Of a DNA stretch of 49,908 nucleotides, positions 12,001-18,000 are shown piece after piece; within the stretch, counting starts at the first letter, position 1, and the number at the start of each line of letters is the position of its first letter. The stretch is from Desulfobacterales bacterium. GTDB lineage: Bacteria > Desulfobacterota > Desulfobacteria > Desulfobacterales > UBA2245. The stretch is from positions 146,722 through 196,629 of the forward strand of contig JAXGZF010000008.1 of assembly GCA_040771865.1 (NCBI GenBank), written 5' to 3'. The position numbers are program-made.

Positions 12001-15000
12001 TCTTGTCCGGATGCGCGATAATCAGCCCGCTTGAATTCGTCATGAATCCATAGCCGGTCTGTCCGATCTTGGCGCATACCTTGTCGACCAGGTAGTCAAT
12101 TTTCATGACGATGGCGGCGGTTCCAGCAAATTTCCCTTCTGAAGAGATGATCGGCGCGCAGATCGAGGAAATCGGGTTGCCGCTGATTTTGGATTTCACC
12201 ACCGCACCGACATTGGCCTTTCCATTTTTGGCCGATTGGAAATAGTCACGGTCTGCCAGTGAAAGGGTCTTGTAAGTTCCTTTGGATCCGTCGGCGATCA
12301 CGGTGCCTGCGGCATCGGTCACCAGGATTGTTTCATATTCCGCTCCAATGGTGCTCATGATGCCGGCCAGATGGCGGTCCAGAACGGCGATGTCTTCCGG
12401 CGCCTTGCTGGCCGCGGCCTGCACGCTTGTATCCGTGACGGCCAGTTCGCTAATCACCTTGATTTCGGTGCTCAACGACACCTGAACCATGTCGGCGATA
12501 TCCTTGGCCGACTTGGAGGCCTGATATTTGGCGGCTGATTCAAGGGAATTTGACGCCTTGACGGCCGAAAAAATTCCAACGGCCAGGAGCGGAATCAGGA
12601 CCACCATAATGCCTCCCGCTACCAGTTTAAATCCAAGTGTTCTTTTTTTCATTAGTTCTCCCCCTGTTTAAATTTGATTTGAAATAAGGACATTCAATCC
12701 ATAACGGCCATAAAAGTGAATCAATGCTCAGAATAAAAGCAAACCGTGTGCCAGATATTGTGGTGGTATGACCGGATTTTTGAAAATTGAGATTTGAGGA
12801 AGGGACGAGTCGATCTTCAGGAGGAGCTTAAACGATTCCTGTTTCATGAGACTGTCGGCCTGTTCGGCGTTGCCGGCGTTCTGCTGAATCATGGAAGACA
12901 TTTCTTCCACAGAGGATGCCGCCGGACCGTTCAAACAACTTCGGATCGCTTTTGAGCAGATTACCATTTGGCTGGTGAAACAAAGCTGTTCCAAAGTCCG
13001 GCTTTCTTAATTTTTCAAAACAAAGTATATTTTAAACAATAATCGATCATTAGGATGAGGGCGCAATGGATATAAGGCGAGGGGATCTGAACAGATATGA
13101 TGAGCTTATTTTAAAGGTTTAGGAGACAGAACAGATGAAACAGGTGCTGTTTGTGGTCTTGGTTCTTTTTTTTACGGGTTGCGCTACAGGCCCCGTTCTT
13201 TATCCCAATGCGCACCTTCAGGCGGTCGGTGAGGCCCAAGCCCAAGAGGATATTGCGGAATGCGAGCTTCTGGCCGATCAGTACGTCAAATCCGACGAGG
13301 GTGTTGCTATGGCTAAAAGTACGGCCATAGGAGGAGCGGGGGGTGCCGTGGTCGGTGGAGCTGTGGGCGCCGCGACGGGCAGCTTCGGGCGGAGCGTTGG
13401 CGTCGGCGCCGCCGCCGGTGCGGCGACGGGTTTGGTGCACGGCATCATCCAGGCTTCGGAACCGAGCCCCATTTTCAAGAACTTCATGATCCGATGCCTG
13501 CAGGAAAAAGGGTATGAGGTCATCGGGTGGGAATGATGACCTGCGTTGCTGTGTGCGGGAACCCTGAAGGATTTTTCTCCGGAATGTGGTCCCTAAAAAA
13601 GGCCACAACCTCAAGCTGTCACCTTCATCAAGGCGCCTGGCGATTTTCCCGGATTGAACCCTAACAGAGCGTTGAAAAACAAGAATCAGGCAGCCAGGCA
13701 AGGCGCGCGGCGATGCGACAAGCGCAGCATATTCAAGCATATGTGAGCATTGGCGAGAGCCGCGCAACGCGGAATGGCGGCCTCAGACGCAGTTTTTCAA
13801 CAGCCTGCTAAAGCCGCATTTTCCTGACGGACCGCTGCTGCTCTGGGCGCATGGAAACGTTCATGTGCTCGCCAATTTGCTTTAACCGCCCTGTTACAGT
13901 ACCTTGGTGAAGGTCAGGGTGGCCATCACGCCCCTGGGCCGGTCCTGTGTTTCGATCTCCCACTGAAGCCGCATGGATATACCCGTTGTGATGGACGGCA
14001 GAAAAACACTGGCTTCAGGGCCGATGGCAAAAGCCCTGTCATGAACATCCTTGTCCCAGGTCACGTCAACGCCGCTGTCGTTCTCGACCTGCCAGCTGCA
14101 GTAACCGGTCAGCCCCACATCCCAGATTTCCGCCAGGGTCTTGCTCACGCCCCACTCAAATAGGAAATCATCGCCCGGGGTAACATCCGCATCCCTTTTT
14201 TCGCTGTGTATTTCGTATCGCATGAGAATCGACGCCGCCCATGTTCTGCCCACATCCAGATAGTATGTCCCGCCGGCGGTGACCATCAGGGTCCAGAAGT
14301 CTTTTCCGGGAGAGGCGGGTTCGGACTCGTCATAGGCTCCCGTCGGCGTCCAGAGGGACAGGGCGGCGGCAGCGTCATACCGTCGGCCGTGCCAGGACAG
14401 GCCGACGGGTTCGATGTTGATGTCGCCCAGACCGAAGCGCGTGTCGGAAACCCCGGTTTCCCGAATGGAGATATCAGTGTAAGTCAGCGGAATGGTGGCG
14501 TCCATGAAGAAATTCGCACCCAGAACCTTTTGATCCGTCACCCAGAGAAAGCGGCTGACCGGCGCAAAGACCGTAAGGTCAAATGAGAGGGGAACCTTGT
14601 CTCCGTTCTTGTCCCTGAGTTCATTCGAGGTGTACAGGGCGTTGTACAGTTTGTAGTAAAGGCCCGGCGGGGGAAGGGTGCTGCATTTGATCCCCTCGAC
14701 GCCGTTGACGTAATGGCCGGTTTCTCCGGCAAAAGCCATGCCCGCAAAGCCGAAAAGAATTAAAACCCAGAGCGCCGTAACTGTTTTTTGCATGTGTTTT
14801 TTCAACCTCCGTTGATTTTCCGGCCCGGGGACGGCATCCGCCGGCAATAAAAAACCCCGAAGCCAATTTGAAATCAGCCTGGGGCTTTACCATTGCCGCC
14901 AAGATTTAAGGCCATTCGGCAGGTCTTCTGACTCGCGGATCATTCTAGTCCCCGCGCCTTCCCGCATCGATTCGTATTTTTCTTTCGATGCAGTGGCTTT

Positions 15001-18000
15001 CCCGCAGGTTTCGTCCTCGCTTACAGCGGCGGGTCCGTGCCGGATTTTCGCCGGGCTTCCCTCTTTTGTCGCCCTTTTGGGGCAACCGAATGCCGAAATT
15101 GTGACTTTTCAGGTGCTCCTATCATATGGGGAAAACAACTGTCAATGAAATAAAGGGAGGAAAGAGTTCATCGTTTACGGCAATTTCGAATCCGGTTCAA
15201 ATATTTCCGAAATTCTTGAATTTGAATATTTAAACTGACCATCCACATTGACAGACAAACCCCGGCTGTGGTTTAGTGTAAATGATTGAATCAGGTGCGC
15301 ATGAACGTTAATTCAGTACAGGTGCGCATGAATTCCTGATCCCCCGTCATGAGAACCCGACCGGCGTTGTGGACAAAAACGGGTCCCTGTTTTGTTGGAG
15401 AAAAAAATTGAAGATTCCGCTGATCAAGGAATACCCCTGCCAGCATGAATCCCGGCTCAGGCTCAAGAATGGGGCCGAGGTGTTTCTCAGGCCCGTTATG
15501 CCGGCAGATAGCCATCTCATTGTCGATTTGTTCAACAAAATGTCTCCGCAGTCGATCTATTTTCGATTTCTGAGGCGCCTCAACGCCCTTCCGGAAAACA
15601 TGATCCGGCAATTTACTCACGTCAATTATAACAGCGAACTCGCCCTGGTTGCCGTGATTCAAGAAGACGGAAAAGATGCCATTATCGCTGTCGGACGATA
15701 CGGATATGATCCTGATGAGGATATTACGGATCTGGCTGTTGCGGTCCGTGATGACTGGCAGCATTTCGGACTTGGCAAATCCTTGTTGAAAAAAGTTGTT
15801 GATATCGCAAAGGAAAATGGTATTTCACGTTTCACGTGCATGATGGATTCTCAAAATCACATAATCAAAAATATCTTACTGGCACTGGGTTATAGGGTGA
15901 CATATCTTTCACAGAGCGGTTTTTACCGGGTTGAGATCGTTGTCGGTTAAAATAATTTGCATGTTCAACAAGTAAGCGCTATAGTTAATTCTTGAAAATG
16001 TTGAACAAAAGAGATATTGCGCCCAACAATCAATGATTGAAGACAGGGTATTGCTCAAAAGGCAAAACCGCTATTTTACCACCGTATTATGATTTGATTG
16101 ATGAATATTACAGAAGAAAGGAGAAAAAGTTATGAAAAAGATCGCGGGCGTTATTTTTTGCATGGTATTTTGTTTGACAATCGGTTTTTCTGCATGGGCT
16201 GTTGAGTTGGATCCAGCCGCTGTGAAGGCAGAGAATTTTCCGGCAAGTTATGCAACGGAAAAGGGCGGGAACATTGTTTTCGGAAAATCGGCAACCGCAT
16301 ACAGCCCCGACGAAATGGATACAATACTGAAGGCTTATGGCGGCACAATGCAGGCGGATGCGAAGGTGCCGGCAAGTTATTCAAAAGGAAAAGCGGCAAC
16401 CGCATACAGCCCGAATTTAACCCATGAAATTCTGACGGCTTATGGTTTCAGCACCACCCCTGAGGCCATTGCGGAACTTAAAGATCCCGCCAGTTATGCA
16501 ACGGTTAAAGATGGAAACATTGTTTTCGGAAAATCATCAACAGCTTACAGCCCCGAAGAATTTAATATGCTGATGGCTGCTTATCGGTTGCCCGAAGTTC
16601 CCGTTGCTGCTCCGGTTGTGGAAAAGCCGGTTGCTGTCGCACCGCCGGTAGAAAAATGTATTGATGCAGATGGTGACGGTGTCTGCGATGATGTTGATAA
16701 ATGTCTGGGCACCCCGGTGGGCGCGAAGGTTGATGAAAGAGGATGCTGGGTAATTGGCGTTCAGTTTTTTGATTTTGACAAAGCCGTACTGAAGCCCATG
16801 TATTATGGGGATCTTGATGAGGTTGCGAAAGTGATGAAGGCAAACCCGAATCTAAGGGTTGATCTCAACGGTCATACCTGCGATCTCGGCTCAGAGAAAT
16901 ACAACCAGAAACTATCTGAAAGACGCGCCAAGGCGGTATTTGATTATCTGACAAATCATGGAATCGATGCGCAGCGGCTTACCTGGAAAGGATATGGCGA
17001 GACCCAGCCCGCATTTCCGAATACCTCAGAGGAAAACAGGGCCAAGAACCGGAGGGTTGAACTGACTCCAATCCTCAAATAACAGCAATAAGAATATAGT
17101 TTGATCTTTTGCAAAGGCGGCGGGCAATGGCCGATTCCCATTGCCCGCCGCATGCAGTCAGGAATGGAAAACGGCTGTATGCCGCCGGGCCGGAACAGGA
17201 AGCGGGTGTCGTATTAGCCTGCCCGTGAATCTGATCTTTTGTGACCTGCCCCGCGAAGTCCCGGTGCGCCTTAGAACATCGGCCGCAAAATCATGTGTCT
17301 GGATGCCAGACGGTTCTATAGCATGGATAACCATACCAGATCGCTCTGTTGGCCCTTCATGAGGAAGGGTTTCGTCATCAATCTACAGATTGCATGCCAA
17401 CATAAAGGAGTAACCGCTATGAAAAAGAGCCATGTTTGTGTCCGCTGTTTGTTGATTGTAATACTGATCGCCAGCCTGGCGGCCTGCGCATCGACATCCA
17501 AAAAGTCAAGTACCGGTGAGTACATTGACGACACGGTTATTACGACCAAGATCAAATCTCTTCTCGCAGCGGATGCTTTTCTTAAATCATTCCAGATCAG
17601 CGTTGAAACCTTCAAGGGCATTGTTCAGCTGAGCGGTTTTGTTGATTCCAAACAGGCCGCTAATAAAGCGGTGGAAATAGCGCGCGGCGTTAAAGGCGTC
17701 ACATCCGTGAAAAACAATCTGATTGTGAAATAGACAGCCCGAAATTCACACGAAAAATCAAAAAATCTCCTGTTTTGTCTTCTCTACATCAATCGGGTAT
17801 TCAAAGAGCCGTTCCCGGTGGCACATGGGGGCGGCTCTCTTCAACTCAAGAGCCGGTCTTGACACGGAAAATGATCCCGTCACTTTTTCCCAGGAGGCTG
17901 TAAAGCATGCAATTCCTGAAAACAAAACGCCAGCCATTGAGATCCATTTTTACTGCCGTTGGGTTGGATAAAATCGCAAGACATCTGGCCTTGTTGACCT

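Follow-up and report, generated by a model that had tools for sequence, protein, structure and literature searches.

A cobalamin-riboswitch-led COG4313/SphA-family channel in a Desulfobacterales bacterium as a candidate outer-membrane pore for cobamide lower bases or their aromatic precursors

What might an outer-membrane channel carry when its gene lies behind a cobalamin riboswitch? The question is raised by a 49,908-nucleotide stretch of contig JAXGZF010000008.1 (positions 146,722 to 196,629; the window), in which a preliminary description had placed a B12 riboswitch directly upstream of a Phenol_MetA_deg beta-barrel. The features concerned are the following.

13894..14793, minus strand: COG4313/SphA-family (PF13557) outer-membrane channel, 299 aa (Pfam E 8e-47)
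14806..14810, minus strand: ribosome-binding site GGAGG, from sequence, 12 nt before the ATG
14849..14888, minus strand: intrinsic-terminator-like hairpin followed by six T (expression platform), from RNA folding
14895..14903, minus strand: G-rich segment, predicted antiterminator strand (local fold -12.9 kcal/mol)
14901..15105, minus strand: cobalamin riboswitch aptamer RF00174 (cmscan 114.2 bits, E 5.6e-28, full model 1-189)

The riboswitch described at 161622-161826 of the contig is identical to the RF00174 match, which is above the gathering score of 31.5 bits, is on the same strand as the channel gene and lies within its 5′ leader, ending about 108 nt before the ATG. It is one of six riboswitches in the 2.98-Mb genome. 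The sequence that follows is predicted to be an expression platform with alternative terminator and antiterminator structures: the predicted partner of the G-rich segment is the 5′ arm of the terminator, and with corrinoid bound the segment may instead pair with loop L5 as a kissing loop, a role suggested by analogy with PMC10327014. The 141-nt leader folds with a z of -2.4, a hairpin and T run are present in all seven leaders folded, and compensating letter changes occur among relatives, including a G-C to A-U double change between the window and L010. RNA folding gives an equivalent antiterminator pairing with different letters in the leaders of L105, L093, and L085, but it is not the best local fold in those of L010 and G110. 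A consensus scan for promoters and terminators returned no promoter-like site before the riboswitch and did not list the terminator hairpin, which was found by folding. In its predicted folds the leader resembles the repressing riboswitch model; an activating cobT riboswitch also exists (PMC10327014). If it represses, scarcity of corrinoid would let the antiterminator form, the leader be read through and the barrel be made, while bound corrinoid would let the terminator form and turn the channel gene off. Five runs are listed as RNA evidence, none with half of the words; one RNA run has a single 152-nt contig over 14896-15047 with 0 differences and none over the gene, and such contigs show neither transcript end nor level.

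The channel gene runs on the minus strand from an ATG at 14793 to a stop ending at 13894. Its product matches PF13557 at 160.7 bits against a cut-off of 22, over profile positions 2-242 of 242, and is the sole match to that family in the genome; its Atlas clusters are named SphA family (score 0.99). Residues 1-22 resemble a signal peptide. An AlphaFold2 model (pLDDT 90, 12-14 strand elements) has an N-terminal plug segment followed by a 12-stranded barrel, and is matched to the COG4313 structure 4RL8 (Pput2725) both by Foldseek (TM 0.77/0.85) and by VIA (Z 28.6, rmsd 2.1 over 259 residues, 29-299 aligned to 1-268). Along with the Pfam match, these bear out the Phenol_MetA_deg assignment. Since no PDB sequence matched the family profile at E values up to 1, the structural comparison depends on the model, from which the protein is predicted to be a COG4313 12-stranded barrel with the N-terminal segment inside the lumen. 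It is like Pput2725, SphA, and TcpY in length, in having 12 strands and in the N-terminal segment before strand 1, but is only 17-18% identical. The wall cluster of Pput2725 consists of Asp92, Thr94, Pro119, Thr120, Gly121, Tyr123, Asn130, Asn134, and Asn166; five of these nine have counterparts judged by spacing only, with no residue-level structural alignment (Asp92 with Asp124, and Pro119-Thr120-Gly121-x-Tyr123 with Pro150-Thr151-Gly152-x-Tyr154). Among 97 homologues Asp124 is invariant, and Pro150 and Gly152 are nearly so.

Other barrels fit less well. BtuB likewise serves outer-membrane uptake and is made from a gene behind a cobalamin riboswitch, but it is a 22-stranded energised receptor for whole corrinoids. 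TonB-dependent receptors of this kind have a plug domain and a large barrel in about 600 aa, whereas the window protein has 299 aa and no NCBIfam or Pfam TonB match. FadL, TodX, and CymD are also plugged barrels for hydrophobic aromatics with a lateral diffusion model, but they are 14-stranded members of a different family and reach a Z of only 12-15 to the window model. The second-best fold match is FapF (5O65, Z 24.2), an amyloid secretion barrel that is an exporter of amyloid subunits, with a coiled coil at its N-terminus; no fap genes adjoin the channel gene. The COG4313 precedents given in PMC4493636 are TcpY (trichlorophenol), SphA (sphingosine), and the detergent-bound Pput2725. The described members belong to catabolism or detoxification, have protein regulators and come from aerobes, whereas the window channel has a cobalamin riboswitch, comes from an anaerobe and has relatives in a cofactor-biosynthesis operon.

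The genome itself salvages and remodels cobamides. It encodes CbiR, a BtuF-amidohydrolase fusion, CobD, CbiB, CobQ, CobB, and CobT, as well as two riboswitch-led TonB receptors, and searches of it found no CbiD match, no BluB over the cut-off and none of the known lower-base synthesis genes. Its single ThiC-family gene is typed as ThiC; five other linked genomes have at most one such gene each, and the three found are all typed as ThiC. CobT has Tyr/Met/Met at the positions of Salmonella 80/88/175, as does Thermus CobT, and so does not decide between benzimidazole and phenol; Met88 is described as disfavouring adenine (PMC4657239). In the TrpD-like phosphoribosyltransferase the KHGN of the active site reads RHGA, while a HMMER alignment keeps the anthranilate-binding Arg, so a loss of carboxylate binding is not supported. 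A role for this protein in tryptophan synthesis was rejected: four relatives have a second, canonical TrpD, and no TrpA was found in this genome.

In relatives, the commonest layout beside the genes of this module is riboswitch, dehydrogenase, TrpD-like gene, channel, cobT (L085, L094, L095, L096), with partial views of the same order in L087, L093, L101, L102, L052, and L053. In L121 the channel is directly upstream of cobT; in G277 a riboswitch is followed by the TrpD-like gene, a dehydrogenase-CobT fusion and the channel; and in L092, L105, and L108 the channel has its own riboswitch. G110, a genome with the enzyme module, has a 29%-identical channel paralogue that is directly riboswitch-led, but its five nearest relatives are unlinked and it was not accepted as a second B12 clade.

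How general the link is was judged from a sample of about 700 genomes of one phylum and from metagenomes. Among 80 metagenome homologue loci, five are riboswitch-led, nine adjoin a TrpD-like gene and/or cobT, 36 are unlinked, two are only convergent and 28 are too short. The 104 rows of the close subfamily include 52 unlinked and 30 with too short a flank; twelve adjoin a TrpD-like gene and/or cobT, which holds for the relatives, the window gene being linked only via the shared riboswitch class. Two loci (L151, L152) in which a riboswitch-led TonB receptor converges from the other strand were not counted. Linked copies make up 11 of 77 clusters at 90% identity and four of 51 at 75%, and are found in four families of the class sample; a family-level genome search gave one other genome only. 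No riboswitch lies within 1.5 kb in 27 class loci at 37-61% identity, none of 16 channel loci from other classes has a B12 link, and no other riboswitch class precedes the unlinked homologues in 27 class loci or 20 metagenome loci. A search of plasmids gave a best match of 35% identity. In 3 of 79 class genomes the channel is next to the TrpD-like gene, and in none of nine loci from other classes does it lie within 1.5 kb; in one genus it is inside the operon in two genomes and absent from it in two. It is thus an occasional passenger of the dehydrogenase/TrpD-like/CobT module.

These counts alter several earlier statements. The claim that 7 of 23 TrpD-like loci carry the channel was not reproduced, the count here being 3 of 79. 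Among the six best homologues (the top class-sample matches after the window itself), two are riboswitch-led as stated and one more lower down is linked, but only two, not three, lie behind TrpD-like or dehydrogenase-CobT genes, and two have no link. The proposed tie to the lower-ligand module survives as a physical link that recurs in four clusters at 75% identity, although most homologues with enough flank are unlinked. Relatives at 79-90% identity keep both the riboswitch and the terminator directly upstream, but the linked operon copies (55-58% identity over the alignment) are no closer to the window protein than unlinked ones (58%). Homologues as close as the linked ones (55-61%) are mostly unlinked and often beside catabolic enzymes. 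Neighbours of the unlinked copies include an aldehyde:ferredoxin oxidoreductase, a molybdenum enzyme like xanthine dehydrogenase or 4-hydroxybenzoyl-CoA reductase, a UbiX/UbiD hydroxyarylic-acid decarboxylase set, acyl-CoA ligases, and thiolases, and this variety means that the subfamily is not B12-specific.

Two residues track the link. Thr100 and Gly271, which alternation places on the polar side of their strands, facing the lumen, occur together in all 20 linked rows, in 2 of 52 unlinked rows and in 2 of 30 with a short flank. They do not serve as a predictor of the link: in the one clean test, L031, both are present with no B12 gene in 19 kb. The AU test (p 0.41) neither rejects monophyly of the linked copies nor establishes it, so they may reflect one inheritance rather than several recruitments.

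The reading that best fits the sequence evidence, at a probability of roughly 0.55, is that B12 represses the channel gene and that the pore has an accessory role, admitting a neutral aromatic that is either a lower base or the precursor of one. The small hydrophobic molecule would cross the LPS layer through the barrel by facilitated diffusion, probably lateral, which is the mechanism that has been proposed for COG4313 channels. The cargo could be a free lower base (benzimidazole or phenol) that CobT would turn into the alpha-ribotide, or an aromatic substrate of the co-regulated, presumably co-transcribed Zn-dehydrogenase and TrpD-like phosphoribosyltransferase. The odds between these are about even; the lower base is the best guess, inseparable as it is from the TrpD-like precursor. 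Against a dedicated channel, benzimidazoles are taken up by many bacteria for which no such channel is known. Free benzimidazoles are described in environments (PMC4230183). CblT of Listeria (cblTS) would be alike in role, as an outside supply for the lower-ligand branch of cobamide synthesis, but it carries activated ribazole, replaces CobT and has a Gram-positive host (PMC4086397), whereas the relatives of the window protein are outer-membrane barrels that co-occur with CobT.

An alternative is that a mobile gene for an aromatic channel of general use came to lie in or behind B12 leaders on one or a few occasions and is kept with no cobamide role. This would account for the patchy presence (3 of 79 modules), the gain or loss inside one genus, the equally close unlinked homologues and the transposase-like gene ahead of the channel in L097, and one origin is compatible with the AU test. 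It is nevertheless unlikely, since the link survives over 55-58% identity in three architectures (inside the operon, after the dehydrogenase-CobT fusion, and alone with its own riboswitch), the stand-alone form requires that a leader was retained after leaving the operon, a second subfamily is riboswitch-led too, and the lumen residues track the link. Quite unlikely as well is B12-regulated uptake of another part of the cofactor, such as alpha-ribazole or another nucleotide-loop fragment, aminopropanol, cobinamide, or cobalt. The solved family member passes little beyond glycine and is unlikely to admit hydrophilic solutes (PMC4493636), corrinoids are already served by the two TonB receptors, and salvage of alpha-ribazole bypasses CobT, yet the channel is repeatedly wedged against cobT. 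Such a cargo would suit a salvager and remodeller with CbiR, the amidohydrolase fusion and no CbiD match, whose channel gene stands alone in the window, without CobT, and uptake of alpha-ribazole is known via CblT (PMC4086397).

The channel might instead belong to catabolism, admitting an aromatic that can be used only with a cobamide enzyme, or else by a route around one, and be part of the regulon on that account. Unlinked relatives adjoin aromatic-acid and methyltransferase-system genes (URO-D-like/RACo at L045; MttB at L097 and L188), and B12 riboswitches in deltaproteobacteria also control B12-independent isozymes (PMC545781); but no co-oriented catabolic gene follows the channel in the riboswitch-led loci inspected and the recurring partners are TrpD-like and CobT, which makes this improbable. 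An exit role, in which the pore would let out unwanted lower bases that CbiR or the amidohydrolase has removed in the course of remodelling, is very improbable: both the predicted corrinoid repression and the location beside CobT, the activating enzyme, suit uptake, and family members described so far are uptake channels, even though facilitated diffusion works in both directions, the remodelling enzymes are encoded and wrong bases can poison cobamide metabolism (PMC4086397).

Returning to the lower-base or precursor pore, it is an even bet that cobamide lower bases, or an aromatic precursor in an undescribed dehydrogenase/TrpD-like route to a lower base, here have a dedicated outer-membrane channel, the first of its kind, which Desulfobacteria recruited from COG4313 on two or more occasions and which bears two lumen residues as its mark. 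A literature search found no paper on a B12-controlled COG4313 channel, and the literature searched names a single transporter of the lower-ligand branch, the Gram-positive CblT. Members of microbial communities share free lower bases, and these determine the cobamide that a cell produces. If the reading is true, the channel would be a starting point for learning how anaerobes with a Gram-negative envelope gather bases that are present at low concentration, and lower-base cross-feeding among anaerobes would gain a specific gene to test. COG4313, so far a family of catabolism, would then also take in cofactor supply; the channel's cargo would also help to identify the substrate of the undescribed dehydrogenase/TrpD-like/CobT cassette.

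The preliminary description had placed a cobalamin riboswitch directly in front of a Phenol_MetA_deg (PF13557) barrel gene, and both identifications are borne out, the riboswitch by a match to the whole model and the barrel by a PF13557 match (E 8e-47) together with its best structural match, 4RL8.

14901-15105, minus strand: cobalamin riboswitch RF00174, 114.2 bits, whole model
14888-14849, minus strand: hairpin then six T in the gap between aptamer and gene, from RNA folding
14793 (ATG) to 13894 (end), minus strand: channel gene, 299 residues, GGAGG site 12 nt before the ATG

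The genome (2.98 Mb, 98% complete) carries six cobalamin riboswitches, and the channel gene is the only PF13557 gene found in it. The upstream neighbour is a diverging GNAT gene and the downstream neighbour a converging glycine-zipper lipoprotein gene; the channel unit is therefore monocistronic here. The closest named records are from Desulfobacteraceae and Desulfobacterales genomes. Between the channel and lipoprotein genes lies a MITE- or REP-like palindromic element of about 150 nt (13661-13815) without an Rfam match; its ends are also matched at 22630, 30415, and 32512, the genome holds 79 copies that are 100 nt or longer, and a close relative has other sequence at the same site. Farther along the window are a selenocysteine tRNA gene (33283-33376, minus strand), a Fic-domain gene just past it (33914-35116), and an AbiEi/AbiEii type IV toxin-antitoxin pair (36864-38566, plus strand); the AbiEi/AbiEii and Fic region looks like an integrated island.

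An AlphaFold2 model built with 97 homologues (pLDDT 90) is an all-beta barrel behind a low-confidence, signal-like N-terminus. It is closest to the COG4313 channel Pput2725 (4RL8; TM 0.77/0.85, Z 28.6, rmsd 2.1 over 259 residues), with weaker matches to FapF (Z 24.2), autotransporters (about 20), and FadL-type channels (12-15). PMC4493636 describes the Pput2725 barrel as plugged by its own N-terminus, almost shut to hydrophilic solutes, and able to bind detergent; for its relatives, trichlorophenol and sphingosine are the cargoes proposed there.

Of 200 shuffles of the 141-nt leader stretch, 198 fold less well than the real sequence, and the hairpin and T run are present in all seven leaders folded. 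Just before the hairpin, a G-rich segment able to pair with the terminator's 5' arm occurs in the window and in three homologous loci (L105, L093, and L085), the letters differing among them; in the leaders of L010 and of genome G110 this pairing is not the best local fold. The window layout resembles that described in PMC10327014 for a repressing transcriptional corrinoid riboswitch, and repression is thus the predicted sign; it is only a prediction because the same paper also reports an activating cobT riboswitch.

The channel matched in 114 of the 301 genomes of the class sample. The claim that its closest orthologues are riboswitch-led or lie in TrpD-like/CobT operons is borne out in part: 19 other genomes carry 21 places whose identity reaches at least 46%, and five of these are B12-linked. 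These five are spread over four families; two are directly riboswitch-led (87% and 79% identity) and three lie behind a TrpD-like gene or a dehydrogenase-CobT fusion. None of 27 class loci at 37-61% identity has a riboswitch within 1.5 kb, and none of 16 channel loci outside the class is linked. A metagenome scan gave at least 138 relatives, and the 80 kept comprise five riboswitch-led loci, nine beside TrpD-like and/or cobT genes, two with a convergent riboswitch-led gene, 36 unlinked, and 28 with too little flank. The fullest arrangement is riboswitch, dehydrogenase, TrpD-like gene, channel, and cobT; a second riboswitch with a TonB receptor and the BtuF fusion often comes next, as in L094 and L095. 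The 104 rows that reach 44% identity divide into 20 linked, 52 unlinked, 30 short of flank, and two convergent; linked clusters number 11 of 77 at 90% identity and four of 51 at 75%. A riboswitch of its own lies 107 nt before a G110 paralogue that is only 29% identical, though the five nearest relatives of this paralogue are not riboswitch-led. The riboswitch search took in 80 of the 113 genomes in which the channel matched and the counts hold among the matches listed, so linked distant paralogues may exceed those counted.

L188:5601-7715, minus strand: natural Zn-dehydrogenase-CobT fusion, 705 aa, channel gene directly after
G000:C5:98329-106223 (L015, window genome): two tandem riboswitch units, dehydrogenase/TrpD-like/cobT, then TonB receptor with ExbB/ExbD/TonB-like genes

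The tree of 133 rows places the linked copies in a well-supported 15-row clade (ten operon, three riboswitch-led, and two short rows), the window clade of five, and two stragglers. An AU test on a 39-row subset does not reject a single clade holding every linked row (p 0.41), so independent recruitments cannot be counted beyond the separate G110 case. Thr100 and Gly271, which strand alternation puts on the polar side, occur together in 20/20 linked rows, 2/52 unlinked rows, and 2/30 short rows, both of the latter inside the linked clade. This signature is a lead and not a test, because the columns were chosen with labels known and the rows are related. One unlinked carrier, L097, with Ser at the Thr100 position, is sister to a linked copy and is preceded by a transposase-like gene; the other, L031, has no B12 gene in 19 kb.

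Seen from the module, the link is weaker than the 7 of 23 TrpD-like loci given earlier. The TrpD-like gene is present in 80 of the 301 class genomes; a PF13557 gene adjoins it in three of the other 79 and lies within 1.5 kb at 0/9 loci in other classes. Of the 12 genomes whose TrpD-like genes are closest, five hold a B12-linked PF13557 gene at some location. Within a single genus the channel follows the TrpD-like gene in two genomes, and TrpD-like leads straight to cobT in two others. Given these adjacencies and this presence and absence within a genus, the channel is an accessory to the module. In each of two TrpD-like matches (L061 in G204 and L062 in G006) a single in-frame TAG falls within the match, probably the end of a shorter gene.

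Elsewhere in the window genome, riboswitches lead the Zn-dehydrogenase/TrpD-like/cobT operon, the cobQ-cobB pair, a TonB receptor accompanied by ExbB-type genes, a BtuF-amidohydrolase fusion that comes with a second TonB receptor, and perhaps a regulator-like gene. The genes cobD, cbiB, and cbiR (remodelling enzyme CbiR) lie about 3 kb upstream of the L015 units. Apart from the TrpD-like gene of these units, no TrpD-family gene was found in the genome; neither were TrpA, a CbiD match, or BluB above the cut-off. Its single ThiC-family gene is typed as ThiC, not BzaB. Five other linked-channel genomes have one or no ThiC-family gene each, and three have CbiD, which is compatible with the channel accompanying absence of known base synthesis, not absence of corrin synthesis. 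The riboswitch-led fusion of a BtuF-like binding domain to a CbiS/CbiZ-like amidohydrolase domain (L016:7261-9285, minus strand; L094:10772-12793) adjoins a TonB receptor and suggests remodelling in the periplasm. At L017 (G000:C6:166127-167509) a minus-strand cobalamin riboswitch stands back to back with a gene for a helix-turn-helix and periplasmic-binding-type regulator, and a similar gene adjoins the TrpD-like locus L292.

No paper was found joining a cobalamin riboswitch or vitamin B12 with COG4313, SphA, or Phenol_MetA_deg in a search mostly outside subscription papers and regulon databases, where earlier annotation is possible; the COG4313-channel papers listed include none on such a link. 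The B12 section of PMC545781 does not mention it. CblT is the only transporter named for the lower-ligand branch in the portions of PMC4086397 and PMC8123684 consulted, and those of PMC4230183 and PMC9296465 name no base transporter. The channel is a real member of a known family whose regulatory and genomic role is without a description found in the literature. Its link to the lower-ligand module is repeated yet patchy.

The neighbours of unlinked homologues (80 scanned) are of many gene kinds, and several encode catabolic enzymes for aromatic or acyl compounds; the subfamily is therefore not B12-specific. These neighbours also fit a general taste for small aromatics, which could have given rise to a channel for lower bases. 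That the channel is a passenger beside its riboswitch is unlikely; that it carries other parts of the cofactor is slightly less probable, and that it serves a catabolic link is improbable. An exit pore is a very remote reading.

At the positions of Salmonella residues 80 and 88, the CobT of the window genome carries Tyr and Met, a residue set that reportedly broadened Salmonella CobT to phenols; 5-methylbenzimidazolyl cobamide is made by some sulfate reducers. Because hydrophobic residues at these positions reduce adenine use, according to PMC4657239, the CobT sequence favours benzimidazole or phenol over purine as the base. The preferred reading, at a probability of about 0.55, is that the channel is a B12-repressed pore for a neutral aromatic base or precursor, its putative cargo. 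At low corrinoid the leader would be read through and the outer membrane would gain the barrel, through which a neutral aromatic would diffuse inward and be trapped by CobT as an alpha-ribotide, or alternatively be handled first by the dehydrogenase and the TrpD-like enzyme, and finished cobamide would shut the leader.
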